IMG/VR virus record: IMGVR_UViG_3300032323_001119
Location: 1-64,000 of that record
Origin: a virus
Length of the DNA stretch: 64,000 nt
Strand: one strand, 5' to 3'
The position numbers and the translations under genes were made by a program. How positions within the stretch are numbered: position 1 is the stretch's first letter; every line of letters starts with the position of its first letter. Below the pieces are notes generated by a model. It was given only the letters and a program-made list of their open reading frames with translations, searched no databases and was not told the origin of the DNA. Below, in pieces: positions 17,099 to 49,239 of the stretch.

Positions 17099-17184
17099 CT
17101 CACACGACACACCCCCTCAACATCCCCATAATGTCAGACCTATCCGCTACAATTACAACATAACAACAACGAAAGAGGCACTAA

Positions 17185-17367
17185 ATGTCATACGCTTACT
17201 CATACGAAACTAACTCGGTCTCTAAATGGGAGACTATCCAATCAGATGTTGCAGATGCATACTCATACTTAGATGAGGTAGATGATGAGCAACCACCCGT
17301 TGATGATTTTGATGATGCAGATGATGAAGAACTAGCAAAACTATTCACACTAACTTGGGAGAACTAA
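17185..17367 (+). CDS. Small acidic early protein
   Basis: ACGAAAGAGG leader; D/E-rich. Confidence 0.65.
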   Translation: MSYAYSYETNSVSKWETIQSDVADAYSYLDEVDDEQPPVDDFDDADDEELAKLFTLTWEN

Positions 17368-17369
17368 TA

Positions 17370-17540
17370 ATGACTATCACTTACTCAATTTGGCAAGGCT
17401 CTCGCTTACTATCTATCGACAATGTAGCGCATGAGGTTAAGGCTATTGACCACCTAATCGAATCGCTTAACGCTAGCGAACTAGGTAAGAAAACAAAATT
17501 CACCGCTAATGTAATGTCTATCAAGGTAGGGGATAATTAA
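17370..17540 (+). CDS. Small early protein
   Basis: MTITYSIW...; stop overlaps next start (TAATG). Confidence 0.6.
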   Translation: MTITYSIWQGSRLLSIDNVAHEVKAIDHLIESLNASELGKKTKFTANVMSIKVGDN

Positions 17541-17909
17541 TGAGAAAATGTAAGATAGATGTATGCGATTCAACCGAACTAGTGTATAGCGGTGTAGATG
17601 CTTTCCTATTGGGTGTGCCAACCGAAACTTATTGCTATGATTGCTCTAACAATGGAGATGCACATAGAGAATTGCTAGAGGTAACTAACTAATGAATAGA
17701 CTACTAACTACACTAGTGCAATTGGCTATTGCTATCCCCGCCCTATATATGGGGCGCTTAATGTGGCACGAACTAAAGGCAGACCTAAGAGAGATGATGA
17801 GGGGCAACTAATGGAAGACCTATTCGGATTTGAAAAGGCGATTCAACTAGATCACCTTAACCTAGAACAACTAAAAGAACTAGAAAAGATTCTAGATAAA
17901 ATTAAATAA
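17540..17909 (+). CDS. Three coupled micro-ORFs (17540-17692, 17692-17811, 17811-17909)
   Basis: Each joined by a TAATG overlap; 50, 39 (hydrophobic) and 32 aa. Confidence 0.55.
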
Positions 17910-17939
17910 ATACGGCGTGTCGACTTGACAAAAGTTGGC

Positions 17940-17974
17940 ACCCGCACATAGCTGCGGGGTCGGGCGTGTCGTTA
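17940..17974 (+). repeat. 35-bp direct repeat, copy 1 (copy 2 at 19564-19598)
   Basis: acccgcacatagctgcggggtcgggcgtgtcgtta identical in both; contains a CCCGCA/TGCGGG hairpin. Confidence 0.9.
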
Positions 17975-18161
17975 TGAACATGTTATAAAATCCCCCGAAA
18001 TTTACGGCGTGTCGATTTGACAGACAAATCGGACATTTTTTATGTGATGTAAAACACATGACTTGAGCGTCTCACATCTTGGAATTACTGGTTAGTAATT
18101 AGATAAATGTCAGTCCCCTAATGTATAATGTCTACTATAACAACAACGAAAGAAGGTCACC

Positions 18162-18278
18162 ATGAACCTAGAGCAATTCAAGGCTCACGTTATCGCACAA
18201 CGTGAAGCAAGCAAGGCAGAAGCCTTGTCAGTCCTATCTGCTACAATTACCAAATCAACAACGAAAGAAGGCAACTAA
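18162..18278 (+). CDS. Micro-ORF (38 aa) containing the next promoter and leader
   Basis: ACGAAAGAAGG leader; MNLEQFKAHV...LSVLSATITKSTTKEGN. Confidence 0.5.
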   Translation: MNLEQFKAHVIAQREASKAEALSVLSATITKSTTKEGN

Positions 18279-18475
18279 TGTCAGCAAATGTCTACTCCGT
18301 AGAGAGTCTGCTAATCGGCAAGGCTTACAATTCCCGTTCCGTATCTGGCGAAATAATTGACGCAGAAAAAACCGATAAAGTTTGGTATGCGGATTGCGAT
18401 ACTTATCGCGTTCAGGTTAGACCACGCCACGGATTTAACGATACTTATCGTTATCTAGCGGTAAAAACTTCATAA
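18278..18475 (+). CDS. Small early protein
   Basis: Own promoter and leader. Confidence 0.65.
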   Translation: MSANVYSVESLLIGKAYNSRSVSGEIIDAEKTDKVWYADCDTYRVQVRPRHGFNDTYRYLAVKTS

Positions 18476-18566
18476 CTAAATAATCGAAACAGGGGCAGTT
18501 TAGAGAGTGTTCTCGCCCAATGTCGTAAGTAAGAACTCTCACCAATTTTTTAACGAAAGGAAAACT

Positions 18567-18731
18567 ATGTTAAACATAATCGACAAAACCGATTTCTATG
18601 AAATCGCAGATGAGCAACACTTTTGCTGTGATGAAAGTCAGTTTAAGTATTACTGTATCGAGCACCTAGAGTTTATGGGTTGCTACTTTTGCGGATTTGA
18701 CTATGACAAGGATTGCGAGGAACAACACTAA
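18567..18731 (+). CDS. Small Cys-rich early protein
   Basis: ACGAAAGG leader before ATG 18567. Confidence 0.6.
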   Translation: MLNIIDKTDFYEIADEQHFCCDESQFKYYCIEHLEFMGCYFCGFDYDKDCEEQH

Positions 18732-18905
18732 TGGGACACATTGAGTTTTTCCGCCTTGATGATGAAGGCGCTGGGTGGGTAGATTTGGATCAAGCCACTC
18801 CAGAGGAATTGCTAACTCTTGAGATAGGCTTATTTCAAGAGGGCGCCCTCTAATTTGTCAGACCCCTCTGCTACAATACTCTAAATAACTACGAAAGGGA
18901 AACTA

Positions 18906-19112
18906 ATGTATAAAGTAACTTGCCAGTATGACTTTGAGGAAAGCCCTCATTGGTCTGCAAACTACGAGGACGAATTCGAAGCGTGGAAATCTTTTTTCTC
19001 ATTCACCGACTGGGGAATGGCTAACGAATACTCAACTGTAAATATTTACACACCAGCATTGAAATGCTACACAAAAGTTTTTTATCGCAACGGAATGGTG
19101 GTAACGAAATGA
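18906..19112 (+). CDS. Small early protein
   Basis: Promoter 18856 and ACGAAAGG leader. Confidence 0.65.
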   Translation: MYKVTCQYDFEESPHWSANYEDEFEAWKSFFSFTDWGMANEYSTVNIYTPALKCYTKVFYRNGMVVTK

Positions 19113-19303
19113 TGACCCGTAAAGATTATGTAGCAACCGCAGAAATTCTAAAGTATGCAAGCAACAAAACGCACCCAGCGTTATTTTCTAAAATCGTAAA
19201 TGATTTTGCGGAAATGTTTGCAAAAGATAATCCTCGATTTGATGTCGTGAGATTTCACGAAGCCAGCAACTACACAACAATTTTTGGAAAGGTTGAAAAA
19301 TGA
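19109..19303 (+). CDS. Small early protein
   Basis: MMTRKDY...FAKDNPRFD..RF motif; similar motif at the C-terminus of 43384..43842. Confidence 0.65.
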   Translation: MMTRKDYVATAEILKYASNKTHPALFSKIVNDFAEMFAKDNPRFDVVRFHEASNYTTIFGKVEK

Positions 19304-19432
19304 TTTTAGAAATGTCAGCAATTTATTGTGAAGCGTGTGAGGACTCAGCGTTTATCGTTCAACATGAGGATATGATAGAAATTTCTGCGTGTGCTTGCGA
19401 ACAAGATTTGCAACAATTAGCGGAGTGGATAA

Positions 19433-19552
19433 ATGAACCTTAAAGAAAAAATAAAACGCATTCAGGAATTGCGGAGATCAAACGCCGCAACTCCTGTTCG
19501 CAATAAGAAAAAATACACACGCAAGCGCAAGCATAAAAATTCAGAGTATTGA
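19433..19552 (+). CDS. Small basic protein, ArfA-like tail
   Basis: GGAG RBS; ...LRRSNAATPVRNKKKYTRKRKH. Confidence 0.55.
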   Translation: MNLKEKIKRIQELRRSNAATPVRNKKKYTRKRKHKNSEY

Positions 19553-19806
19553 ATATTTATGCGACCCGCACATAGCTGCGGGGTCGGGCGTGTCGTTAAG
19601 TAGGTGATCAAAATCACCCTGGAATTTTTGGGCGTGTTGTAGAAAATGTCAGTGGGCCATGGTATTATTCTCTTAAATCTAACGAAAGGCTCATCCATGG
19701 ATTTTTATGATGAATACTATGAAACAGATATGATACGCCCAGACGCTAAGTCTTGCTATTGCACTAATCATTCTATTTGTACTAATTGTGTTAAGGGGTA
19801 TAACTA

Positions 19807-20529
19807 ATGACTAAACTAAAGCGCTCAAATGATAGAAAGGTGGCTAACCTTGTCACAAAAAATGGAAAGCAAGCCGCAATTGCCAATACATTCGGATTAC
19901 CTGCAGGAAAGGCTTATTCATGTCCTGGCGCTACGAGTATCTGCGAAAGTGTTTGCTATGCAGGCAAATTGGAAAAACTCTTCCCTGGTGTAAAAACTAA
20001 TCTATTGCACAATTGGGAATTGTTACGCAATGCAGACATGGATAGCATGTTGCTATTGCTTGATGAAATGATTGTAGAATTTGTTGCAGACTGTGAAAAG
20101 AAAGACGCCCCTAAGTTATTCCGTATACACTGGGACGGGGACTTCTTTAATGATACCTACGCATATGCCTGGAAGACTATTATCATGAACCACCCCGATG
20201 TTCAATTCTGGGTTTATACACGTGTAAAGTCTGCAGCACTTATTCTTAAGGATGTATCTAATCTGTCTCTTTACTATTCAACGGATGACGAGAATAAAGA
20301 AATAGCATTCGATTTGAAAACTAATTCTAAGGTCCGCCTTGCTTATCTAGGCAAGACATTCGCAGACACTGAGGGCACCATGAAAGAATTAACTGGTAAG
20401 CCTGGCGCTAAGTGTCCTGAGAATATGAAATCAATTCCGCTTATTAGCAATGCAGGGTCCGCATGTGTTTCATGTGGCCTATGTGTTTATGGTAAAGCAG
20501 ACATTCGATTCTCTGCGAGTAAAAAATAA
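19807..20529 (+). CDS. Gp88-like (radical-SAM-related) Fe-S protein
   Basis: CPGATSICESVCYA, FRIHWDGDF, WVYTR, C-terminal CxxCxxC. Confidence 0.75.
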   Translation: MTKLKRSNDRKVANLVTKNGKQAAIANTFGLPAGKAYSCPGATSICESVCYAGKLEKLFPGVKTNLLHNWELLRNADMDSMLLLLDEMIVEFVADCEKKDAPKLFRIHWDGDFFNDTYAYAWKTIIMNHPDVQFWVYTRVKSAALILKDVSNLSLYYSTDDENKEIAFDLKTNSKVRLAYLGKTFADTEGTMKELTGKPGAKCPENMKSIPLISNAGSACVSCGLCVYGKADIRFSASKK

Positions 20530-20814
20530 TGTATGAAGTTATTGGAGCTATTGTAGGATTCTTAATGATATTAACTTCCTTATTACCGTTTGCCCTTGTG
20601 TACTATTTATTTAAACACTTATAACGGCGTGTTGACTTGACAAGATCAAGTCAGCCCCCATATTTGAGGGGTTATCCACAGGTTTAAGTGGAGTTATCCA
20701 CAATCCCTGGAATTTTGTGATTAATCTCACAAAAGCTGCGACACGCCGAGGATGGATTAGGTAATGTCAGTGGGTAATGCTAAAATACTCTTATCCAACA
20801 ACGAAAGGTAACAA

Positions 20815-21039
20815 ATGCCAAATGTAATCACCGTTCCACACACAGTGGAGTTTGTCGCTACTATTGATTTAGATAAGATTGACTCCAACCTATTACCCAC
20901 CCTATTATCTTTATCTGAGGATGAACTAACAAAGATGTGTTCAGAAGCAACACACTCTGCACTAGACATAGCAGATGTATTAACAGTTGCTAACAAAGGT
21001 TATTCTTGGGCTGAACTATCTATCAAGAAGGGAAACTAA
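20815..21039 (+). CDS. Hypothetical early protein
   Basis: Promoter 20765 and CAACGAAAGG leader. Confidence 0.65.
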   Translation: MPNVITVPHTVEFVATIDLDKIDSNLLPTLLSLSEDELTKMCSEATHSALDIADVLTVANKGYSWAELSIKKGN

Positions 21040-21041
21040 TA

Positions 21042-21308
21042 ATGGGATACACAACAGCGTTATCTATTGCTGAGGACTTATCGCTAGAGGCAGGACTTGC
21101 TTATCACTTACAGGGTAATCATTACCCACCCGTTCCCGTCTCAATGGTGCAACCTTGCATAGATGCTATTGATGCGTTCTATGATGAGGAATACAGCCGT
21201 GAGATCAATTTACCTGAAGGTATAACTTGGAGAGGTCAGACTTCCTGCCCTGCGTCTGCGATAGTAGATGCCCACCACTTGGAAGCGTGGCTACCTGAGT
21301 ATGACTAA
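21042..21308 (+). CDS. Hypothetical early protein
   Basis: HLQGNHYPPVP motif; operon context. Confidence 0.65.
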   Translation: MGYTTALSIAEDLSLEAGLAYHLQGNHYPPVPVSMVQPCIDAIDAFYDEEYSREINLPEGITWRGQTSCPASAIVDAHHLEAWLPEYD

Positions 21309-21403
21309 GGTCACACAATAACTTTCTCAAATAATGAGATAGGGCTTGATAAATGTCAGCCCCCAATGCTACAATACTACCCTACACAGAAAGAAGGAAG
21401 CAA

Positions 21404-21586
21404 ATGACAGTACAAGATAAGTTGTATCAGGTTGGAGATTTATTCACCACCCTAAAGTCAAAAAAGACAGGTGTGATTAAAGAAATCCACCCACAGGCAT
21501 CTGGCTCGGTGCGTGTGTTGCTAGAAATGCCAAACAAGGAAACTCGCTGGACATCAGTATCAGCAAGCACCCTAGCAGGTAATTAG
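21404..21586 (+). CDS. Small SH3/KOW-like protein
   Basis: QVGDLF...TGVIKEI; start after AGAAGGAAG. Confidence 0.55.
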   Translation: MTVQDKLYQVGDLFTTLKSKKTGVIKEIHPQASGSVRVLLEMPNKETRWTSVSASTLAGN

Positions 21587-21659
21587 CATAGGGCAGGGGG
21601 GTTGTCAGACCCCCCTGCTATAATACTCTCAACAACAACCAACCAACGAAAGGTAACAA

Positions 21660-22076
21660 ATGTCAAGAGCAATCACAGTAAAGGTGGCAACACCAAAGGT
21701 AATCAAGGCTTTGGAAACAAAGTTAGCAACAATCAAGAAAGACTATGCAGAGCAAGGTGCAAACGAGGCTAAGTATGAAAAGGCTCGTAAGATTTGGCAG
21801 AAGGAACTTCAGGACTATGCAATCGCAAACATCAAGAAGTCAGAGAACCTTCGCACTTCTTACCGCTCTTGGAATAACACTCTCAACATTGACTTTGATT
21901 TGACAGTATCCGAAAAGGATTTGCCAAAAGAGCCTGAGCGTGATTTTGTAACAATGCACCAACACACATACAATGAATTAGTTGAGGACATCACAAATGC
22001 TCTCACAATTCTAAAGATGACAGATGAGGAAACAGTAAATGCTTCTACAATGAAGCAAATTGCTCGTTATCTCTAA
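21660..22076 (+). CDS. Hypothetical early protein
   Basis: Promoter 21603; AACCAACGAAAGG leader. Confidence 0.7.
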   Translation: MSRAITVKVATPKVIKALETKLATIKKDYAEQGANEAKYEKARKIWQKELQDYAIANIKKSENLRTSYRSWNNTLNIDFDLTVSEKDLPKEPERDFVTMHQHTYNELVEDITNALTILKMTDEETVNASTMKQIARYL

Positions 22077-22085
22077 CTAATCCAA

Positions 22086-22113
22086 CGACCTGAGTATGTC
22101 GCCAAACTGCTCA
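22086..22113 (+). ncRNA. H-type pseudoknot motif, copy 1
   Basis: CGAC-C-TGAGTA-T-GTCG-CCAAAC-TGCTCA. Confidence 0.6.
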
Positions 22114-22148
22114 CACCTTCGGGTGTAACTACTAACAAAGGTAAAGCA

Positions 22149-22376
22149 ATGCGTTTCAAAATTGAAATGTACGATGAAGTAAAACAAAATGATTTAACAA
22201 TCTATTCAGAAGAGGGCTATGATAACGAAAGCCTTAAAGAACTTGTCTTCTCAAACCTAAAGAGGTTTGATGGAAATGTTAAAGCTTTTGTCTATGATCA
22301 AAAAAATAAAAAGAAAACATCAGCGGCGTTTGTTCCTATGGAAACAGTCAATTACGTAAAATCATTGTCAAAGTAA
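22149..22376 (+). CDS. Hypothetical protein
   Basis: AAAGG RBS. Confidence 0.6.
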   Translation: MRFKIEMYDEVKQNDLTIYSEEGYDNESLKELVFSNLKRFDGNVKAFVYDQKNKKKTSAAFVPMETVNYVKSLSK

Positions 22377-22380
22377 AATG

Positions 22381-22410
22381 AGCGGGGCAGTTATTCTGCC
22401 CCGCTTGTTT
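22381..22410 (+). terminator. Intrinsic terminator
   Basis: AGCGGGGCAG-ttatt-CTGCCCCGCT then TGTTT. Confidence 0.7.
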
Positions 22411-22582
22411 GGCCCGCAATAATGTGGGGGGTTATCCACAGGTTTAAGTGAGCTTGTGGAAAACCCCTGAAATTATGTGAGATTACTCACACTGATCAAT
22501 TCGGACATATTGTAACTAATCCTAGACAATGTCAGTGGGGTCTGTTATACTTACAACTAATCAAACGAAAGGTAATAAATAT

Positions 22583-23590
22583 ATGGCTCACAATCTCGAA
22601 GTCGAAAACGGCGAAGTTGCATTTGCATTGCGTGGCGCTCCTGCTTGGCACAATCTTGCAAATCGCATCTTTACAAAAGATGAAGAAGTTACAACTCAAA
22701 CAATGCTTGATGAAGCAAAACTTTCTAATTGGAATGTTCGCTTGTCTCCATTGACCGACCACATTTCAGAATCTTGGAATGATGTATCGAATGCTCAATT
22801 AGTTATTCGTGATAACCCATTTAATAAGGGTACTGATGTTCTCGCAACTGTTGGTAAGCGTTACAAGCCTGTGCAGAATGAAGAACTATTCGCATTCGCT
22901 GATGCAATTCACGATGCAAATGCTGATTGCCGTTGGGAATCTGCTGGTTCTCTTAAGAAGGGCAAAGTTGTATTCGGAACTGTGGATATTCCTCGCACAA
23001 TGGTTCTTGACCCACAAGGTGCAAACGATGAAACTAAACTCTATCTAATCGTATGGACATCTCACGACGGGTCTGTTGCTGTTCAGGCTGCTGTTACTCC
23101 TGTTCGTGTTGTATGCCAAAACACTTTGAACCTTGCAATGCGTAATGCAAAGCAATCTTTCAAGATTCGCCACACGCAATCTGTTGAAGGTCGCATTCAA
23201 GTTGCTCGTGAAACTCTTGGGCTTGCTCTTGGTTACTTTGATGAATTCGAAGCCGAAGCAAAGTCTCTCTACTCACAAGCAATTACCGATGCTGAATTCT
23301 CAAAGTTGATTCAGACAATTTATCCTAAGCCAGATAAAGATGCTGCAAAGGTTGCGCTAACTAAGTGGGAGAACAAGGTTGTTCTGCTTGATGACCTTTA
23401 CCACAATTCACCAACGAATGCTAATATCAAGGGAACAAAGTGGGGTGCATTCAATGCACTTACTGAGCGCCTTGATTACTATCGTTCAGGTCGTGGCAAT
23501 TCTGAAACACTAATGGCTGGTGCATCAGGGTTTGACCCAATTCTAACCGCAGAAAAAAATAAAATTAAGAAATTAATTTCTGCGTTTTAA
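22583..23590 (+). CDS. DUF932 family protein
   Basis: MAHNLE...PAWH, YKPVQN, ESAGSL, SHDGS, TPVRVVCQNTL, WGAFNA. Confidence 0.85.
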   Translation: MAHNLEVENGEVAFALRGAPAWHNLANRIFTKDEEVTTQTMLDEAKLSNWNVRLSPLTDHISESWNDVSNAQLVIRDNPFNKGTDVLATVGKRYKPVQNEELFAFADAIHDANADCRWESAGSLKKGKVVFGTVDIPRTMVLDPQGANDETKLYLIVWTSHDGSVAVQAAVTPVRVVCQNTLNLAMRNAKQSFKIRHTQSVEGRIQVARETLGLALGYFDEFEAEAKSLYSQAITDAEFSKLIQTIYPKPDKDAAKVALTKWENKVVLLDDLYHNSPTNANIKGTKWGAFNALTERLDYYRSGRGNSETLMAGASGFDPILTAEKNKIKKLISAF

Positions 23591-23595
23591 TAAAT

Positions 23596-23624
23596 AAATC
23601 CTGAGCAAGATTTAAAACTGCTCA
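23596..23624 (+). ncRNA. H-type pseudoknot motif, copy 2
   Basis: AAATC-C-TGAGCA-A-GATTT-AAAAC-TGCTCA. Confidence 0.6.
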
Positions 23625-23630
23625 CCATTT

Positions 23631-23704
23631 GGTCTGTTAGCTCAGTTGGTTAGAGCGCTACCCTGTCACGGTAGAGGTCGACGGTTCAAGTCCGTTACAG
23701 ATCG
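23631..23704 (+). tRNA. tRNA-Asp(GUC)
   Basis: CTACC-CTGTCAC-GGTAG anticodon arm; canonical D/T arms. Confidence 0.9.
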
Positions 23705-23840
23705 CAAATTATATTTATGCAGATCAATGCATAACTATGCGCCCGCAATATTAAGGGAAAAAAAATTGTGTTAAGTGTCACATAAAAAATTCCCTGGAAT
23801 CTGTAGACAAATGTCAGTGTGGTCCTGTATAATTCTCGTC

Positions 23841-24500
23841 ATGACCAACTATCAGAAGTATACATGGGTGTGCACAGGCGACTGTGACGCATTGATCGAA
23901 TACACAATTAAAGATGGATATGGTTGGCCAGCGGGTGTGATGGACCTCACATGCCGTTGCAACTCTAACTGTACATTATTGTCAGTGGAAGATGCTACAA
24001 TACCGTATACAGATTCACCCCTACCAACGAAAGAGGAACAAATGGAAACAACAATTGGCTCGGATGCATTCCACTCGACTGCAGTCGAATACAATCCTGA
24101 TTTACTAGTTACATATAAAGTAATTAAGGGTTACTCTGACCCTGAATACACAACATCTAAAGTTACATCTCTTGAATGGGATTTGCATAACGGGCGCCAA
24201 GCACAGAAGCGTGTTGGTCTTCTTGAGTCTAACATTAACACAGTTAAAGATATTATCTCTGAGGCATATGCTGATTCAGATGACCAAGATACTCTCCGTG
24301 CAATTGCCGAAGCGCTTAGCATTGAATTAACTAGAACTGTAGAGTTCACCGCAACTATCGAGGTTAGCGGAACAATTGACCTCAACCTTCTTGAAGACTA
24401 TGATTTTGAAACAGAAATCACAGACAACCTTTATGTTGATTCACAGAGTGGAAACATTGAAATTGGCGATACTGAAATCTGTTATGTGAGGGAAGCATAA
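23841..24500 (+). CDS. Hypothetical protein (leaderless start; internal in-frame start at 24042)
   Basis: ATG 7 nt after TATAAT; second promoter (23980) and leader precede ATG 24042. Confidence 0.6.
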   Translation: MTNYQKYTWVCTGDCDALIEYTIKDGYGWPAGVMDLTCRCNSNCTLLSVEDATIPYTDSPLPTKEEQMETTIGSDAFHSTAVEYNPDLLVTYKVIKGYSDPEYTTSKVTSLEWDLHNGRQAQKRVGLLESNINTVKDIISEAYADSDDQDTLRAIAEALSIELTRTVEFTATIEVSGTIDLNLLEDYDFETEITDNLYVDSQSGNIEIGDTEICYVREA

Positions 24501-24715
24501 TGTATTTCGAACTCACCGCTCCTAATAGGCTCTCCATGGAGAGAGCCTATTGGGATGCACATATCATTGGACTGGACCCTACTGTAATGTCAGCATTGAC
24601 TTTCAACATTGGAACTGGTAGTATTGAGAAGGTAAGTCGTATTCGTGATAAGTATAACTTGATTGAAAGTTATACATCAGACTATGAGCCAACAGAAATT
24701 TATAATAGGAGATAA
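24500..24715 (+). CDS. Hypothetical protein
   Basis: TAATG coupling. Confidence 0.6.
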   Translation: MYFELTAPNRLSMERAYWDAHIIGLDPTVMSALTFNIGTGSIEKVSRIRDKYNLIESYTSDYEPTEIYNRR

Positions 24716-24716
24716 T

Positions 24717-24863
24717 ATGTCAGACTACAAAGATGGTTTTGAGGACGGGTACAAGTTTGCTCGTGAAGAGATGATGGAGAAGTTATCAGAGATTGATATC
24801 GCCGATATCGACTCTTGGATTCTTGACCGTCTTTCTGAGATGATTGAAGGCGGGACACTATGA
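24717..24863 (+). CDS. Hypothetical protein
   Basis: AGGAG RBS; YKDGFEDGY. Confidence 0.6.
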   Translation: MSDYKDGFEDGYKFAREEMMEKLSEIDIADIDSWILDRLSEMIEGGTL

Positions 24864-25069
24864 CATCTGAGGACCTAACAAGATGGATTGGCTGTGATCA
24901 ATGCCATACAGCTCAAGCAATGTATATGGTCAAGCTAGTAGAGGGTGAGCTATTCTTTTGTGGCCACCACTACAACGCAAGCAAGGCAGGCCTTGACAAG
25001 GTCGCATACGAAGTGATAGAATTAAACAAAATCGAAGAAGCGGTACCTCAACTAGAAACGGCGGAATAA
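24860..25069 (+). CDS. Zn-finger-like protein
   Basis: CDQC...LFFCGHH. Confidence 0.65.
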   Translation: MTSEDLTRWIGCDQCHTAQAMYMVKLVEGELFFCGHHYNASKAGLDKVAYEVIELNKIEEAVPQLETAE

Positions 25070-25070
25070 A

Positions 25071-25466
25071 ATGGGCGACAGAGCAAACTTTGGATTCAAG
25101 CAATCTAATGATGAAACAATCGTATTATACGGTCACTGGGCTGGACATGAAATGCTTGCTAATCTTGCAGAAGCAGTAGAGAAAGCACGTTCACGCTGGA
25201 CCGATGAATCATATGCAACACGTATTGTTGTATCTAATTTAATTGGAGATAACTGGCATGAGACCACGGGTTGGGGTCTAACGGTTAACAACATTCTAGA
25301 CAACGAGCACAAAATTCCTGTTATCGATTGGCGCTCAGGGACCTTTAGTCTTCATGAGGAAGCCTCGTGGGAAGAAGATACCAAGGTTAAAGGTATGATG
25401 GATGAACCAATGTTCACAATGACATTAGATTCATTTGTTAATAAGTACTCTAGGGTAAACGCATAA
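25071..25466 (+). CDS. Hypothetical protein
   Basis: MGDRAN...LYGHWAG motif. Confidence 0.7.
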   Translation: MGDRANFGFKQSNDETIVLYGHWAGHEMLANLAEAVEKARSRWTDESYATRIVVSNLIGDNWHETTGWGLTVNNILDNEHKIPVIDWRSGTFSLHEEASWEEDTKVKGMMDEPMFTMTLDSFVNKYSRVNA

Positions 25467-25475
25467 ATTAATTCA

Positions 25476-25559
25476 AGGGTGCCTCTAGCAGTCACACGAC
25501 GTGGCCAGGGGTTAAATAAAGCATCGGATTTTACTTTCGTTGGTTACCGATAGCAGCCT
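25476..25559 (+). ncRNA. Putative structured antisense RNA (loop complementary to early-gene leaders)
   Basis: Closing stem AGGGTGC/GCAGCCT (one mismatch), GTCAC/GTGGC hairpin, ATCGG/CCGAT hairpin with loop containing TTACTTTCGTTGGTT. Confidence 0.5.
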
Positions 25560-25761
25560 GTGTAAGAACTTGACAAATAGATCAATGGCCCGCAAAAAAT
25601 AAGGGTAACATATTTTGTTTACGGGGTCAATATAAAAAACCCTGGAATTTTGTGATCTTGACCACATAGCTTGGAAAATGTGGTGTGAAACACACCCAAA
25701 TAGTATTCCAATTGTCAGTGGTCCAATGTATAATTATCACATATCAACGAAAGGATATAAT

Positions 25762-26535
25762 ATGCCAAATTGGGTATATAACACATTGACTATTCAAGGA
25801 CCTAAGTCTGAGATAGATATGATTAAAGATAGATTGAATAAGCCTTTTACATTAGCACAAGAGACATTCGGTATGGGTGATATTTCTTCTATGGGTTTCC
25901 CCACCAAAATTAAGCAGGTTGAATATAATAATCCTGTCTTTGCTTTCTACAATATACACTCATATAAAGATGACGGTATTACTGATGAAGAGTATGCCTG
26001 CCAGCCTGACCGTTCAGGTGTTGACATGAAAGACCCTCAATGGTTTGCTAAGTCTGTTGCATTCGCAAAGACTCAGAAGGATTGGTATTCTTGGAACAAC
26101 TCTAATTGGGGAACTAAGTGGGATGTTGCTGTATCTGATGATGACCAGTATCCAAACACAGAACTACTTGAATATAAATCAGATGGTGATGATAATTGGC
26201 TTGTCTACAAATATGAAACTGCTTGGTCACCTGCTGTAACTATTCTAACTAAACTATCTAATCTTGTTCCGAACTGCCTGCTCACATTAGAGTATGAGGA
26301 GGAAACAGGTTGGGGTGGAGAGTATGAGATTGTCCGTGGTGATGTTAAAACTATTCTAGAATATGAAAACCGCTGCTACGCTTGCCAGTCTTTTGATACA
26401 TTAGATTATTGTGAAGATGACTGCGGTGAATTTTGCTCCGAATGTAATCAAGGCTCTTGGCAAGATGAGGTGGCTATGAAAGAATGTCAGACCCACATGG
26501 TATTATTGGAATCTAAAGAAAAGGCGGATGCATAA
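25762..26535 (+). CDS. YubB/DUF1281-like ferredoxin-fold protein
   Basis: MPNWVYNTL, DWYSWNNSNWGTKWD, YETAWSP. Confidence 0.75.
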   Translation: MPNWVYNTLTIQGPKSEIDMIKDRLNKPFTLAQETFGMGDISSMGFPTKIKQVEYNNPVFAFYNIHSYKDDGITDEEYACQPDRSGVDMKDPQWFAKSVAFAKTQKDWYSWNNSNWGTKWDVAVSDDDQYPNTELLEYKSDGDDNWLVYKYETAWSPAVTILTKLSNLVPNCLLTLEYEEETGWGGEYEIVRGDVKTILEYENRCYACQSFDTLDYCEDDCGEFCSECNQGSWQDEVAMKECQTHMVLLESKEKADA

Positions 26536-26747
26536 TGGAAGCATTTACAGATACAGTTGGAGAACATATCCTTGGAGCAATTCAAGTAGATATTGAGCAA
26601 CATCTATTTGAGCAATGGAACAATGCTAATTTAGATGAGGGAGAAGCATATGCTGAATATAAGTTTATGCAATTTGCTCCTGATAGCCTAAAGCAATCAT
26701 ACAATGAATACTATGGCTATATTGAGGGAGATGAGTTTCTATTATGA
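26535..26747 (+). CDS. Hypothetical protein
   Basis: TAATG coupling. Confidence 0.6.
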   Translation: MEAFTDTVGEHILGAIQVDIEQHLFEQWNNANLDEGEAYAEYKFMQFAPDSLKQSYNEYYGYIEGDEFLL

Positions 26748-26883
26748 TTACATCACAAGAACTCATTGATTACATGTATGATGACAACTTAATCCATTTT
26801 GACGACAGAGATACATCAGATGATTGTGATTGTCACATTCATATAACACTTAATACTATGATTAAATATATGGAGGCAATTGA

Positions 26884-27069
26884 ATGCTAGGTTATGAGAT
26901 GTCTGATATTAATGAGATGATTAATGCTGTACATGATGCTAAGTTATTCTATCTTAGGTCCCCGTCCGATTTGATCGATAAGGAGCCTTTAATTAAAAGC
27001 TTGGAAAAGACAAATGATTTTCTTCAAGGCTTGTGGGCAGAGGGGTATTTTGATGGCTACCAAGACTAG
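26884..27069 (+). CDS. Hypothetical protein
   Basis: GGAGG RBS; LQGLWAEGYF. Confidence 0.6.
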   Translation: MLGYEMSDINEMINAVHDAKLFYLRSPSDLIDKEPLIKSLEKTNDFLQGLWAEGYFDGYQD

Positions 27070-27253
27070 TACATTTATGGAGTATCTAAAGATACATCTA
27101 ATTAGTTTAGAACAAGACTTAGAACAGATTGATTATGTAAATAGTCATCATTTCTATAGAGTCAAAGAGGCTGAAATTGCAAATACGAAACACATTTTGT
27201 CAGTGGCTACTGATATAATGAACTCTTCTAACGAAAGGTATAACAATGAATAG
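27053..27253 (+). CDS. Hypothetical protein
   Basis: Start after AGAGGGG; contains promoter 27198. Confidence 0.55.
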   Translation: MATKTSTFMEYLKIHLISLEQDLEQIDYVNSHHFYRVKEAEIANTKHILSVATDIMNSSNERYNNE

Positions 27254-27560
27254 AGAAGACATTGGGCTCCCGCCCCATTTGCAACGCATGATTAACCTAG
27301 GTATGGACGGTGCAGACATTATGCATGGAGAACTAAAGGTGCTCATGCTAGAGGCGGAAAAGCAATTAGAACTAGCACAACAAGCCGAAGACGAATCTGA
27401 AGAGGCAATGGATTCTATGGAGCGAAAGTACTGGGAAGGTGTACTTGATACATATGGAGAACTATACGGTCTTACATATGACATAGCATTTGCTAAAACA
27501 GAAAAAGATAAAGAAAACATGCTAGCAGCAATTAGTCAGAGGAGATACAATGAAGCCTGA
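27246..27560 (+). CDS. Hypothetical protein
   Basis: ACGAAAGG leader. Confidence 0.65.
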   Translation: MNREDIGLPPHLQRMINLGMDGADIMHGELKVLMLEAEKQLELAQQAEDESEEAMDSMERKYWEGVLDTYGELYGLTYDIAFAKTEKDKENMLAAISQRRYNEA

Positions 27561-27867
27561 TGATAAAGATAAACTAAACAAATGTTTAGAGATTCTAGAC
27601 ACTACCGACCTAGGTCTGTCCATGGTATGGCTATGGACATGGTCAACAATTGGCAATATATTAGATGATGAAACATTCAGGGCCAATGTAACCAAGGACC
27701 AGATGTGGGACCACCTGTGCGAGGCTGTACAGGCTGGCCAAGGCTTCTCTCTGGAATACGGTGCCGAACAGCACCATGAAGAAGTACAAGAATGGATGTT
27801 AAATCGTGAATACATTGTAGACACAATGTTTGAAGAAGATGAGGAGGAAGAAGATGAAGATGAGTGA
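27550..27867 (+). CDS. Hypothetical protein with acidic tail
   Basis: GGAG RBS. Confidence 0.65.
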   Translation: MKPDDKDKLNKCLEILDTTDLGLSMVWLWTWSTIGNILDDETFRANVTKDQMWDHLCEAVQAGQGFSLEYGAEQHHEEVQEWMLNREYIVDTMFEEDEEEEDEDE

Positions 27868-28093
27868 TGTATATATTAATGATCAATTAAGTAAGGCTCA
27901 ACAATTGTTATGGGGTGGCTCCGAAACTGAAAACATCGAAGCGCATAACATTATATCTAAACTAATTAAAGATAGAGTAGAGCAAGTAGATCAAATTTAA
28001 GGGCAGAAAAAATGTCTTACGGCAACTATTTACAATTTCGTGGAAAGTTGCTATAATTAACAAAACAACTATCTCTTGAAAGGGGATTATCAA

Positions 28094-28240
28094 ATGGCAA
28101 CAAAGCGTGAATATCTAAAGCAGCAGGGCATTACTGTAGGTGTACGTGGTCGCTTCTCAGGAGCAGCCAAGGTAGCTCTAGCTGAGGCGGAAGCTAAGGG
28201 CATTAAGTTTACAGCCGAAGTTACAAAGAAGGCTAAGTAA
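28094..28240 (+). CDS. lsr2: Lsr2-like DNA-binding protein (DNA-binding domain only, 48 aa)
   Basis: MATKREYLKQQGITVGVRGRFSGAA resembles the Lsr2 C-domain (REWA..NG..V..RGRI); TTTACA-N17-TATAAT promoter at 28029-28057. Confidence 0.7.
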   Translation: MATKREYLKQQGITVGVRGRFSGAAKVALAEAEAKGIKFTAEVTKKAK

Positions 28241-28249
28241 ACCAGGGAC

Positions 28250-28278
28250 GGGGTCAGGGTTCGTTGGTCCTTGACCCC
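28250..28278 (+). ncRNA. Hairpin/terminator with anti-leader loop
   Basis: GGGGTCAGGG-TTCGTTGGT-CCTTGACCCC followed by a pyrimidine-rich tract. Confidence 0.55.
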
Positions 28279-28324
28279 CTTCCTTATTTTTGGTATAATC
28301 GAGAGTTAACGAACAGGGGCGGAC

Positions 28325-28600
28325 ATGGCAAAGACACAATCACTAGAAACAAAAGCGGCTGAAAAAGTACTGGAGGCTATGGATAGCCATTGGTTTAATC
28401 CAACTATCATGGCTAGAGCATTAGTAAATGGTTGCGGATACTATACTCAATCTAAGGTAATGGAGTTAGTCGTAGAAATTATCAAGCAAACTGCAAGTCA
28501 ATTAGATAATGCGTGGGAAGAAGGGGTTACAACAGAAGCCCTATTCATGGCAGATAGACTAGCAGATTACATTGCTAACTTTGAACCAATAGAAGCATAG
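28325..28600 (+). CDS. Hypothetical protein
   Basis: TGGTATAAT promoter upstream. Confidence 0.65.
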   Translation: MAKTQSLETKAAEKVLEAMDSHWFNPTIMARALVNGCGYYTQSKVMELVVEIIKQTASQLDNAWEEGVTTEALFMADRLADYIANFEPIEA

Positions 28601-46338: not shown

Positions 46339-49172
46339 TTTCTTCCTCCTCGTGAACCTGGTGAATTTGCTCCTGACGAGCCTCCCCCAGAACTTCCTCC
46401 GCCTGTACCTGTGCCACCCCCTGTGGCTCCTCCTGCAGCGACTGCTGCTGCGTTAATCGCTGCACCTGCTGCTACAACTGTAGCAACTACCATATCTGTT
46501 GCTTCTTCTCTTTCTTCATCTGACATATCAGCGCCAATACTTCCAAATGCTGCTAATGCTGCTGCTGGATTAGTAAATAATTCTTCTACCAGTGCTCCTG
46601 GGTTCTGTAGTAATTCTACTTGAGCAGCGACTTCTGCAGTAATCACAACTGCATTTCCATTTTCATCAGTACGAATATCTACTGGTGTTGATGGTGGCAA
46701 ATCAGAATATGATACACCTGCTGCTTTTATATCTGCAGATGAAACGGCTTCTCCAGGTTTAATTTCTTCAAGCAGTTTATTTACAACTACTTCTTTTTGT
46801 TTTTCAGTTAACTTACCTTCTTCTGCCGCTTTCTTTAATTCCTCTGCTTCCTTTTTTGCTGCTTCTAATTCTGCAGCTTTTGCTTCAGCTTCAGCTTTTG
46901 CATCTGCGGCTTCTTGTGCTTTAGCTTCCGCCTCTGCCTTAGCATCTGCTTCTTCTTGAGCCTTTGCTTCTGCTTCAGCCTTAGCATCTGCCTCTGCCTG
47001 CGCTGCCGCTTCAGCCTCAGCCTCTAATCTATCCGCCTCTGCTTTTGCATCTGCTTCAGCTTGTTCTTTGGCTTCTTGTTCTGCCTGCGCTGCTGCTTCT
47101 TCTGCTGCTATACGATCAGCCTCTGCTTTAGCAGCGGCTTCCTCTGCGGCTACACGGTCTGCCTCAGCCTTAGCTGCCGCTTCTTCTGCGGCTTTAGCTT
47201 CTGCTTCTGCTTTTGCTGCAGCTTCCGCTGCTGTTTTGGCGGCTGCTTCTGCGGCTGCTGCTTGTGCAGCTGCTTGTTGTGCTGCAGCCTCCGCTGCTGC
47301 TGCTTCTTGTGCTGCTTGGGCTGCTGCAGCTGCTGCTGCGGCATTTGCAGCGGCTTGTGCTGCTGCTTGTTGCTCTGCATAATAATTAACTGTAACCTGT
47401 GCTGCATTTGTCATTGCAGTTACTGCTTCATTTACTTTAGTTATTGCTATATTAGCCAATGTATCTGCTGTCTGTACAGCTACTGATAGATTTTGATTTG
47501 CAGTTGCAAGGTTCTGCTGCTCTGTTGATAAGGTTTGATTAGCATTAGTTAAATTTGTTTGAGCAGCTGTTAGGTTTGTTTCTGCTACTACCTTTTCTGC
47601 TGTGACAGTTGTTAATACTGCTGTGCTAGCAGCAAGATCAGTAGTGGCTGATTGTAATGCTGCTACCTGTTGTGGTGTAGCAGATGATGTTGAGAACTCT
47701 GATGCTGGAATTACTTCCCAGGTTGACCCGTTATATCTACGTAATGATACTGCTGCCCCTCCACCATTTTCGTAATACCACATTTCAAGGGTCTTTCCAA
47801 CACCAGCAGTAGTTTCAACATCTGCTGTGGATCCTCCACCACCCTTGTCAAACCAGTCATTGATAACGGTCTGCCCGTCTAGCTTTAAAAGAACTCCGTC
47901 ATCTGCAGGTGCTGTAATATATTGCGTTCCAGTAGTTTGTGGAGTCCAGATACCATCCCATTTAACCTGAAATCCTTCTGTAATTGTTGTAGTTCCTTGC
48001 TTAGTTGCAGACACATTGTCTACTCCATAGTAGTCCCAATTTGCTGGTATATTTATAGATGCAATCTTTTTGCCTTCTGGGGCAGTAATAACTTCTTGAT
48101 GCACATAGCTAGGGTATGTTGAGTTAACATTATCCTGAATATTAAAAGTGCTTGTAGTTCCATCAGTGTATGTAACTACTGCATTATGATCTCCATTTTT
48201 AGCAAAGACTTGGAAGCTTGCAGCAACTGTATTTGCTGGCATGGTAATAAGAGTGTCTGCAGTTGATCCTCTAAGAGTTAGGGATGGATCTTGTCCAGGA
48301 CCAGGAAATCCAATAGACCCAATATATACTTGATTATTATTTGTAGTTGAGACTGGAGTTCCATTTACTGTAATTCCTATCTCAGTGTTTAGTCTATTAT
48401 TAGCAAAGGTTTCGGTTACTGTTGTTGTACCGCCATTTACTGTCGGTCCTCCACTACCCCACTGCTCATTAATTCCATTTGTATCTTTTCCAGTGTAAAC
48501 AACTGTTCCTTCTCCAACTGTGGGAGAAGCTCCATTATCTGCGCTATCAATAACTGTTATATTTAGTCCAAGAGAGGTATTTGCATTTACTACTGCTGTG
48601 GCAGACTCTACAGCTTCTGCCTTTACCTCTACTACTGCCGTCTGAGATTCAACTGCTGCTGTTGCTGTAGCCAATGTAGTAGTTGCTGTGGCGACTGTTG
48701 CTGTAGCTGACTCAACTACTGTTACTGCTGTAGCTACCACTGCTGTCTGTGAATCAACATTAGCCTGTGCTGTTGTGGCAACTGCTACGGCTGTCTCTGC
48801 AGATTGAATAGCAGTATTCGCTTCTGACACCTTTACTGTTGCCTCTGCGACTGCTGTGGCTATAGGCTCTTGAGTTGTAGCAATTTGGGTAGCAGTCTGA
48901 GTATCTGTGTTTGGAACATTGGATTGAATAGTATTTACAATAGCTGTTGCTTGAGTTTCAGCAGCTTGCTGTAGTGTTGTTTCTGCTGTTTCTATTTTAG
49001 CTGCAACTGTCTCAACTGTAATAGGAGTGGTTGCTGTGGCTGTATCTGAAGATGGGTTTGCTGGAGTTACTTGAACGGTAACTTCTTCAGCATGTGCGTT
49101 GCTTGGTCCAAAAAGAAAGAGCCAGCCGATTATAAAAAGGCTGGTTAAAAAATACTGTAACTTTCTAGTCAA
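46332..49172 (-). CDS. Large secreted protein: PA14-like domain on Ala/Thr and Ala/Glu coiled-coil stalks
   Basis: Signal peptide (AHA); ADDGVLL...INDW...YYENGGGA PA14 motifs; AEAEAKAQEEADAK repeats; C-terminal hydrophobic and Gly-rich segment. Confidence 0.75.
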   Translation of the reverse strand: MTRKLQYFLTSLFIIGWLFLFGPSNAHAEEVTVQVTPANPSSDTATATTPITVETVAAKIETAETTLQQAAETQATAIVNTIQSNVPNTDTQTATQIATTQEPIATAVAEATVKVSEANTAIQSAETAVAVATTAQANVDSQTAVVATAVTVVESATATVATATTTLATATAAVESQTAVVEVKAEAVESATAVVNANTSLGLNITVIDSADNGASPTVGEGTVVYTGKDTNGINEQWGSGGPTVNGGTTTVTETFANNRLNTEIGITVNGTPVSTTNNNQVYIGSIGFPGPGQDPSLTLRGSTADTLITMPANTVAASFQVFAKNGDHNAVVTYTDGTTSTFNIQDNVNSTYPSYVHQEVITAPEGKKIASINIPANWDYYGVDNVSATKQGTTTITEGFQVKWDGIWTPQTTGTQYITAPADDGVLLKLDGQTVINDWFDKGGGGSTADVETTAGVGKTLEMWYYENGGGAAVSLRRYNGSTWEVIPASEFSTSSATPQQVAALQSATTDLAASTAVLTTVTAEKVVAETNLTAAQTNLTNANQTLSTEQQNLATANQNLSVAVQTADTLANIAITKVNEAVTAMTNAAQVTVNYYAEQQAAAQAAANAAAAAAAAQAAQEAAAAEAAAQQAAAQAAAAEAAAKTAAEAAAKAEAEAKAAEEAAAKAEADRVAAEEAAAKAEADRIAAEEAAAQAEQEAKEQAEADAKAEADRLEAEAEAAAQAEADAKAEAEAKAQEEADAKAEAEAKAQEAADAKAEAEAKAAELEAAKKEAEELKKAAEEGKLTEKQKEVVVNKLLEEIKPGEAVSSADIKAAGVSYSDLPPSTPVDIRTDENGNAVVITAEVAAQVELLQNPGALVEELFTNPAAALAAFGSIGADMSDEEREEATDMVVATVVAAGAAINAAAVAAGGATGGGTGTGGGSSGGGSSGANSPGSRGGRKW

Positions 49173-49239
49173 CTAGGTATCTCCTAAGTAATGCAATATT
49201 TTTGCTTACTTAGTAATTATAGCAGAATGTTAGTTTAAA

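Follow-up and report, generated by a model that had tools for sequence, protein, structure and literature searches.

A conserved three-way-junction RNA of a large uncultured phage displays the complement of a leader shared by early genes and may lower their translation

Positions 1 to 64,000 of the virus record IMGVR_UViG_3300032323_001119, an IMG/VR phage record of 110,437 bp with direct terminal repeats, were analysed and are referred to here as the window. Between 17 and 28.6 kb the window carries a block of small genes on the plus strand (the early block), and within this block a conserved three-way-junction RNA was found, whose apical loop displays the exact complement of the leader in front of a whole class of early genes. 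On balance, sequence comparison suggests that this plus-strand RNA pairs with the early leaders via its loop and thereby lowers the translation of the class. As the loop is an exact mirror of the shared leader, the RNA probably switches early-gene translation as a group. An original prediction had proposed that two hairpins of this region act as antisense elements on the early regulon. The coordinates of both hairpins were reproduced, and for hairpin 1, which forms the distal part of one arm of the junction, the proposed role received comparative support, whereas hairpin 2 turned out to be mainly a terminator with a weak match to the leaders. The junction RNA and its parts are located as follows:

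25475..25561, plus strand: conserved three-way-junction RNA of about 85 nt (covariance model R1, 68.4 bits, E 1e-13)
25477-25480 with 25556-25559, plus strand: stem P1
25481-25486 with 25507-25512, plus strand: stem P2, apical hairpin variable
25513-25520, plus strand: J2/3, the 8-nt A-rich joiner UAAAUAAA
25521-25527 with 25547-25554, plus strand: stem P3, with a bulged A at 25552
25523-25527 (ATCGG), 25528-25546 (19-nt apical loop) and 25547-25551 (CCGAT), plus strand: hairpin 1, the distal part of P3
25534..25541, plus strand: anti-leader core CUUUCGUU, exact complement of AACGAAAG

Relatives were collected via the neighbouring gene at 25762-26535, which yielded 80 related loci. The motif TTCGTTG recurs about 225-250 nt 5' of the homologues of this gene, even where the flanking sequences cannot be aligned. 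In an alignment of 36-38 distinct copies, the segments GGUGC..CU and AG..G(Y)UAARUAAAGC, the loop CUUUCGUU and GCAGCC were invariant. The RNAalifold consensus comprises P1 (NGGU/GCCN'), P2 (GCNNCU/AGNNGC) and P3, which consists of GC followed by a variable stem with the bulged A. Thus, the larger three-way fold that had been suspected around hairpin 1 was recovered by RNAalifold as well as by the covariance model. When 48 distinct sequences were aligned with the model, 98.3% of the cells were paired and compensatory changes occurred in 7 of the 14 pairs; when the partners were slid by 1-3 columns as a control, pairing amounted to 23-51%. The stem of P3 covaries among the relatives (AUCGG/CCGAU, AGGGU/ACCCU, GGAUUU/AAAUCC and others), and most single-sequence folds of the relatives, like the minimum free energy fold of the window copy, gave the same junction.

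The RNA is assigned to the plus strand, because one invariant U.G pair and many G.U pairs of the alignment would be A.C mismatches on the other strand. For the same reason the alternative put forward in the original prediction, namely that minus-strand loops serve as decoys for a leader-binding protein, is not supported. A minus-strand relic of a promoter plus leader was also considered for hairpin 1 and rejected: it is spaced unlike the promoter class, and the G.U pairs speak for the plus strand. A pseudoknot between J2/3 and the P3 loop (AAGUAAA with UUUACUU) was discarded as well, as its covariation was inconsistent across the subtypes.

Rfam was searched at both gathering and E-value thresholds, and queries with the window, the region and 7 relatives gave tRNAs and noise only; the junction RNA itself matched no family even at E ≤ 10. 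Neither a DNA-level homologue of the region nor one of the small RNA was found among GenBank phages with megablast and blastn. The junction RNA therefore appears to represent a new, hitherto undescribed family of structured RNAs (model R1, more than 100 members). The covariance model detected one true copy per genome. A weak match to R1 elsewhere in the window (49151-49228, plus strand, 17 bits, E 0.1-0.5) is without the conserved motifs and is probably noise.

The second partner of the proposed interaction is the leader of the early genes:

17168..27238 (early block), plus strand: leader motif (A)ACGAAAG(G/A), 7-11 nt 5' of ATG
17169, 18146, 18261, 18553, 18891, 19682, 20801, 21646, 22565, 24027, 25747 and 27231, plus strand: starts of the ACGAAAG leaders
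17132..27219, plus strand: promoter class TGTCAG-N10-TAYAAT, 11 exact copies plus variants, all in the early block
25741..25758, plus strand: leader of the gene 25762-26535, in which a 5-bp stem (AUAUC/GAUAU) can present AACGAAAG as an 8-nt loop

The occurrence of ACGAAAG ahead of 12 start codons was borne out, each of these sites being separated from its ATG by the same short distance of 7-11 nt. In the window the motif is present in 17 copies (4.4 expected), a number that was reached by 0 of 100 shuffles. Fourteen copies lie on the plus strand; 12 of them are the leader sites, and the remaining two (13665 and 22225) are located within open reading frames (ORFs). When genes were called over the whole genome with our own crude ORF heuristic (166 genes), AACGAAAG was found in the translation initiation regions (TIRs) of 8 of the 27 called early genes and of 0 of the 139 others, and genes other than the early class favour AGGAG or AAGGA sites. 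Actinobacterial 16S rRNA can pair through its 3' tail with GAAAGG but not with the AAC that precedes it. The predicted accessibility of the leader motif was 0.78 compared to 0.58 for its surroundings. For the leader loop at 25741-25758 the unpaired probability was 0.99, and stem variants (AUUC/GAAU, UAUU/AAUA) occur in the relatives; this loop might possibly be a kissing partner of the loop of the small RNA, although the evidence for it is weak.

Most of the 12 leaders are preceded by a promoter of the TGTCAG-N10-TAYAAT class, whose upstream hexamer lies too near the -10 box for a normal -35 element. The motif stands just 3' of this repeated promoter class, and a DNA-binding protein is blind to the strand, so that AACGAAAG could also be regarded as a double-stranded DNA site, bound by a regulator in both orientations, with the RNA complementarity as a by-product. 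We consider this very improbable. In the 9 leaders with a matching promoter, the distance from motif to ATG was 7-10 nt (standard deviation 0.9), compared to 11-25 nt (standard deviation 4.3) from the -10 box of the same-class promoter to the motif. The spacing is constant to the start codon and variable to the promoter, and hence the motif belongs to the ribosome-binding site and not to the promoter. In addition, the motif contains the Shine-Dalgarno (SD) sequence, and its inverted copy is displayed by an RNA hairpin loop, on stems that covary and include G.U pairs.

Several observations connect the loop with the leaders, as would be expected if the two pair. With a scaffold pattern blind to the loop sequence, which matched at least 119 viral contigs, CUUUCGU was found in P3 of 107 of 119 scaffold copies, on differing stems. 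A loop that is kept on variable stems and covaries with the leader had been looked for in related genomes as a check on the antisense idea, and hairpin 1 showed this behaviour, with more than 100 relatives keeping the leader. In a seed profile of the 87-nt RNA, CUUUCGUU was the sole 8-mer with a complement in many TIRs (8 of the 166 genes), and the mean unpaired probability of the loop core was 0.63 versus 0.41 for the rest of the RNA.

The bases that flank the core also covary with the leaders. If the core is preceded by C (CCUUUCGUU), G follows AACGAAAG in 91% of the distinct leaders, compared to 68-69% with A or U in this position (Fisher p 8e-8; per loop type, medians 0.93 versus 0.71, p 3e-4). 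If the core is followed by G, C stands before AACG in 41% of the leaders versus 18% (12/65) otherwise (p 3e-4; per loop type p 0.008). Furthermore, the loop and the leader occur together. Leaders with ACGAAAG reach 0.76 per kb in loci with the loop and 0.14 per kb in loci with another loop, where they are about 5-fold rarer, whereas AGAAAGR leaders are equally frequent in both sets (0.24-0.25 per kb). Genomes with the loop have 7-14 clustered AACGAAAG sites, three genomes without it 3-5. Lineages whose scaffold has another loop mostly use canonical AGAAAGG leaders, as in the locus of G004 with 16 AGAAAGG leaders, no ACGAAAG and a different P3 loop. In this genome (L090) the TGTCAG promoters are kept, (A/T)AAAGAAAGG leaders are used throughout, 19 AGAAAGG sites occur in 20 kb, and the P3 loop is the G-rich CUGGGGGUGUU.

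According to the proposed mechanism, the apical loop of P3 would display 5'-CUUUCGUU-3' and pair with 5'-AACGAAAG-3', which overlaps the Shine-Dalgarno sequence GAAAGG of at least 12 early messages. Such pairing would cover the ribosome-binding sites and lower the translation of the whole early class, and genes outside the block, with sites of the GGAG/AGGAG type, would be left untouched. The C in AACGAAAGG, by which the leader departs from canonical AGAAAGG, would pair with a G of the loop. The distinguishing base is the C of ACGAAAGG, which stands opposite this G; a canonical A in its place would stand opposite the final U of the 16S rRNA. The C looks like a private mark by which the RNA could distinguish the early leaders of the phage from ordinary sites. 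If this applies, one small RNA would control a whole class of genes via a shared extension of the ribosome-binding site, as an RNA counterpart of RegA and RegB of phage T4, and the invariant AACGAAAG in a dozen unrelated early genes would be accounted for. The seed has 8 nt and at least 12 natural targets, and both leaders with A instead of C and scaffold variants that lack this loop occur in nature.

Several points weigh against pairing with the leaders. The fold energy of the window RNA was no better than that of shuffles (z -0.10), and the case for the fold therefore rests on the covariation. For the window copy, neither a promoter nor a terminator of its own could be recognised. The duplex would comprise only 8-9 bp, and the first two bases of the core are often paired inside P3 (unpaired probability 0.36-0.44). 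Unconstrained duplex energies of the loop with all TIRs did not separate the targets from controls with shuffled loops; since they were uninformative, they were replaced by the seed counts. The statistics on flank covariation and co-occurrence pool related genomes without correction for kinship, and a tree of the marker gene, intended for a count of independent losses, could not be used for it because of poor resolution or mosaicism. In G001, a complete relative without the scaffold, 5 ACGAAAG leaders persist, and 1-3 remain in lineages with a minimal P3, so that the C of the leader is not strictly dependent on the RNA. Finally, about 10% of the scaffold copies carry unrelated P3 loops. As the scaffold persists with other loops, the junction must serve a purpose independent of the anti-leader loop, perhaps in folding, in processing or in binding a protein partner.

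The latter observation leads to the view that the junction is a protein- or ribosome-binding scaffold (a decoy, an assembly or a stability factor), to which the anti-leader loop was added in some lineages or in which it mimics the 16S tail, in either case without regulating the early genes. Conservation is indeed higher in the junction nucleotides (GGUGC, UAARUAAAGC, the bulged A and GCAGCC) than in any stem, very different P3 loops are found on the scaffold, and CUUUC resembles the anti-SD sequence of the 16S 3' tail. Nevertheless, we regard this explanation as unlikely, since the exact 8-mer is kept in 90% of the copies, the GUU beyond the anti-SD part matches the AAC of the leader, and the flanks covary with the leaders. 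Besides, comparison of the neighbouring genes with Pfam and PHROGs revealed no recognisable RNA-binding partner.

The variant scaffolds themselves are diverse. In L013:3717-3783 and L020:3716-3783 the P3 loop is unrelated, the P2 loop is CCUUUCAG or CCUUUCGG, and 4-6 AACGAAAG leaders are kept; the displayed anti-leader sequence may here have moved to the P2 arm. In L143:2994-3059 the scaffold lies behind TTGACG-17-TACAAT and has a P3 stem AGGAG/CUCCU with the loop CCUCGAAAA, and the leaders of the contig are of the GGAG/GAGG type; this could be a retargeted version. L211:2258-2308, which is identical in L155, is a minimal scaffold of 51 nt with P2 GCUUCU/AGAAGC and the P3 loop GUAAUU; L211 and L155 apparently belong to another phage group and have tRNA-like sequences nearby. 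Leader complements of the alternative P3 loops of G004, L143 and L211 were sought, and no convincing targets were found among them.

If loop and leader do pair, the displayed sequence would have been moved or swapped in the course of evolution: CUUUCGUU in P3, CCUUUC(G/A)G in P2 of L013 and L020, a CCUC loop in L143, and the loop of the terminator behind an Lsr2-like gene described below. We therefore tentatively suggest, as something plausible rather than probable, that a private Shine-Dalgarno dialect (AAC plus GAAAGG) on one temporal class and a matching scaffold RNA form an orthogonal on/off switch, and that the scaffold is retargetable and unrelated to the C4 RNA of phages P1 and P7.

The scaffold was detected by the covariance model neither in Streptomyces phage Jay2Jay, the nearest cultured relative at the protein level, nor in G001. 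A scan of prokaryote genomes (596 Gb) gave 28 pattern matches, and true copies were only those in two short contigs of metagenome-assembled genomes (MAGs), so that the RNA is not a mimic of a host RNA. These copies (L217:453-530 on a 3.5-kb contig and L242:1882-1964 on a 2.9-kb contig, about 79 bits) come from one Bacteroidia MAG and one unclassified MAG; probably both are phage contigs that were binned by mistake.

Regarding its synthesis, the junction RNA seems to be a stand-alone small-RNA gene of about 150 nt in most relatives. The transcription unit there consists of a promoter AGTCAA-N10-TATAAT, which shares its geometry with the early TGTCAG-N10-TAYAAT class, followed by a small, covarying and stabilising 5' hairpin, the junction, about 12 nt and a strong intrinsic terminator. 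Flanking sequence was available for 107 distinct copies: the promoter lies 30-43 nt upstream in 63 of them, a terminator follows within 90 nt in 87, and both are present in 60. The subtype of the window is different: the 5' hairpin is missing, AGGGTA-N10-TTAATT stands in the position of the promoter, and another sequence takes the place of the terminator. Upstream of the RNA, the following features were identified:

25071..25466, plus strand: gene for a protein of 131 aa (phrog_31860, unknown function)
24993..25022, plus strand: sigma-70-like promoter TTGACA-18-TAGAAT with TG, which would drive the gene 25071-25466

The stop codon of this gene is located 11 nt 5' of the invariant GGUGC that opens the RNA, and in the relatives the 3' end of its homologue overlaps the promoter of the small RNA. 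Because there is no terminator in between, the promoter at 24993-25022 would transcribe the RNA element, too. Most likely, the RNA of the window is thus made as the 3' part of the message of the gene 25071-25466.

Such a position raises the question of whether the element acts in cis, as a riboswitch-like aptamer or attenuator, as a processing or stability element of a 3' untranslated region, in the control of read-through into the downstream gene, or by sequestering the SD of the leader at 25747 alone. The arrangement of junction and terminator in the relatives resembles an aptamer with its expression platform, and in the window no terminator stands between the element and the leader that follows, so that both may share a transcript. 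However, the downstream gene has promoters of its own between the terminator and the start codon, and in L038, L066, L073 and L079 the element lies in another context, 2-2.4 kb from the marker gene. No anti-terminator pairing was seen by eye, a dedicated search not having been made, and no Rfam riboswitch matched. Since the complement of the loop is present in 12 leaders and not in one, action in cis appears quite improbable, and pairing in trans with the early leaders is preferred.

The closest analogue of the junction RNA is C4 (RF01695), together with the related P4 CI RNA. C4 of P1 and P7 is about 77 nt long and has three stems, a GGW start after cutting by RNase P, a conserved core and variable loops, one of which occludes a ribosome-binding site (PMC5320573). 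C4 and the junction RNA are both encoded by phages, measure about 77-87 nt, consist of a closing stem and two hairpins, and begin with GGW; they also share the conserved core, the variable loops and an antisense segment exposed in a loop against a phage ribosome-binding site, which in the present case is a matter of complementarity only. C4 can be excised from a longer transcript (PMC5320573), and the window copy likewise is without its own promoter. However, RF01695 (gathering threshold 45 bits), which gives 68.8 bits with P1, matched neither the 401-nt region nor anything in the whole genome at E ≤ 10, and reciprocally model R1 does not match P1 c4. Unlike an RNase P-type end, the P1 stem of the junction RNA extends 5' of the invariant GGU with covarying pairs. 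C4 controls one operon (icd/ant) in the lysogenic immunity of proteobacterial phages, whereas the single loop of the junction RNA is complementary to at least 12 separate early leaders, and the carriers are large uncultured phages with probably actinobacterial hosts. As judged by the models, the resemblance to C4 is one of design only, and the junction RNA is not a member of the C4 family.

Pairing with several SD regions by one loop is familiar from cellular RNAs. RNAIII and RsaE of S. aureus and the actinobacterial 6C RNA have hairpin loops with a pyrimidine-rich copy of the 16S tail, which pair with the SD regions of several mRNAs. These RNAs are cellular, have C-rich UCCC loops and other folds, and no Rfam match to them was obtained here; in contrast to them, the loop of the junction RNA extends past the anti-SD part (GUU) and matches a leader that is private to the phage. 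The shut-off of early messages as a class is known from T4, in which the endoribonuclease RegB and the translational repressor RegA recognise a signal in the ribosome-binding site. RegA and RegB are proteins, whereas the effector proposed here is an RNA and the signal of the class is an extension of the SD. To our knowledge, hardly any regulatory RNAs have been described from virulent phages, and literature searches for a regulatory RNA like this one in actinophages or phages of freshwater Actinobacteria found none.

The second hairpin of the original prediction lies downstream of a gene for a small Lsr2-like protein, as had been described:

28250-28259 (GGGGTCAGGG), 28260-28268 (loop TTCGTTGGT) and 28269-28278 (CCTTGACCCC), plus strand: hairpin 2
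28245..28291, plus strand: hairpin 2 in full, a terminator, with the stem 28245-28259 with 28269-28283, one C.C mismatch and the U-tract 28284-28291
28094..28240, plus strand: Lsr2-like gene, 48 aa (phrog_6269, E 1e-7), with a strong promoter at 28029-28057
28271..28299, plus strand: promoter TTGACC-17-TATAAT of the gene 28325-28600, with its -35 box within the 3' arm of hairpin 2

The 48-aa protein covers positions 6-47 of the phrog_6269 profile of 188 positions and is thus far shorter. Hairpin 2 has 14 pairs and the 9-nt loop UUCGUUGGU (-25.5 kcal/mol, z -2.7), starts 5 nt after the stop codon and is followed by the tail UUAUUUUU. With its GC-rich stem and an immediate U-tract after a stop codon it has the features of a rho-independent terminator. 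Two features set it apart from an ordinary terminator: the unusual length of the loop, and a 3' arm that also serves as the next -35 box. A consensus terminator scanner skipped the hairpin solely on account of a loop longer than 8 nt. The main role of hairpin 2 is to terminate the mini-Lsr2 gene, and it overlaps the next promoter.

It could also be a genuine second anti-leader RNA, in that the 3' hairpin of the Lsr2 message acts on the ACCAACGAA leaders. The window contains 5 copies of TTCGTTGGT (0.27 expected); the three on the minus strand correspond to the sense motif in the leaders 21646 and 24027 and in one intragenic site, and the only plus-strand copies within the 64 kb are those in the two hairpin loops, which thus present the reverse complement of the leader as had been reported. 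Among the homologous terminators, three loop families (UUCGUUGG; CUUUCGUU in L051/L052; CCUUUCGG in L010/L129) are complementary to the extended leader over at least 7 nt, for which a chance of about 0.003 per loop was roughly estimated. Against this, about 11 other loop families of this terminator are unrelated, and the three matching ones may share ancestry. Hairpin 2 complements the general leader over 6 nt only, and over 9 nt for two leaders only. In several relatives, U-to-A, U-to-C or deletion variants break the match to AACGAA, ATCG and CTCG weaken it, and in most relatives an extra C is predicted to let UGG pair, which leaves a loop of 5 nt. In the related clade TCGTTGGTCCTTGACC is invariant and the 5' arm drifts via G.U pairs; this conservation can be explained by a constraint at the DNA level, because the block includes the -35 box. 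Taken together, a second anti-leader RNA at this site is doubtful.

Between the junction RNA and the next gene, a block GCCCGCAAAA..(T)RAGGGTAnCAT..TTTACGG..GTCAAT (25589-25632 of the window) is kept in nearly all relatives despite differing flanks, and it may contain one or two promoters of the TANNNT type.

The window has a GC content of about 38% and 8 tRNA genes. Among cultured phages, protein comparison placed large Streptomyces phages with terminal repeats nearest, with those of Mycobacterium and other actinophages coming next. Together with the Lsr2-like gene, these relatives suggest an actinobacterial host, probably from a low-GC freshwater lineage. A DUF932 protein encoded at 22583-23590 (E 4e-56) shares about 50% identity with gp5 of Jay2Jay, which is located in the terminal region of Streptomyces BE-type phages, where an Lsr2-like gene is found nearby, too.

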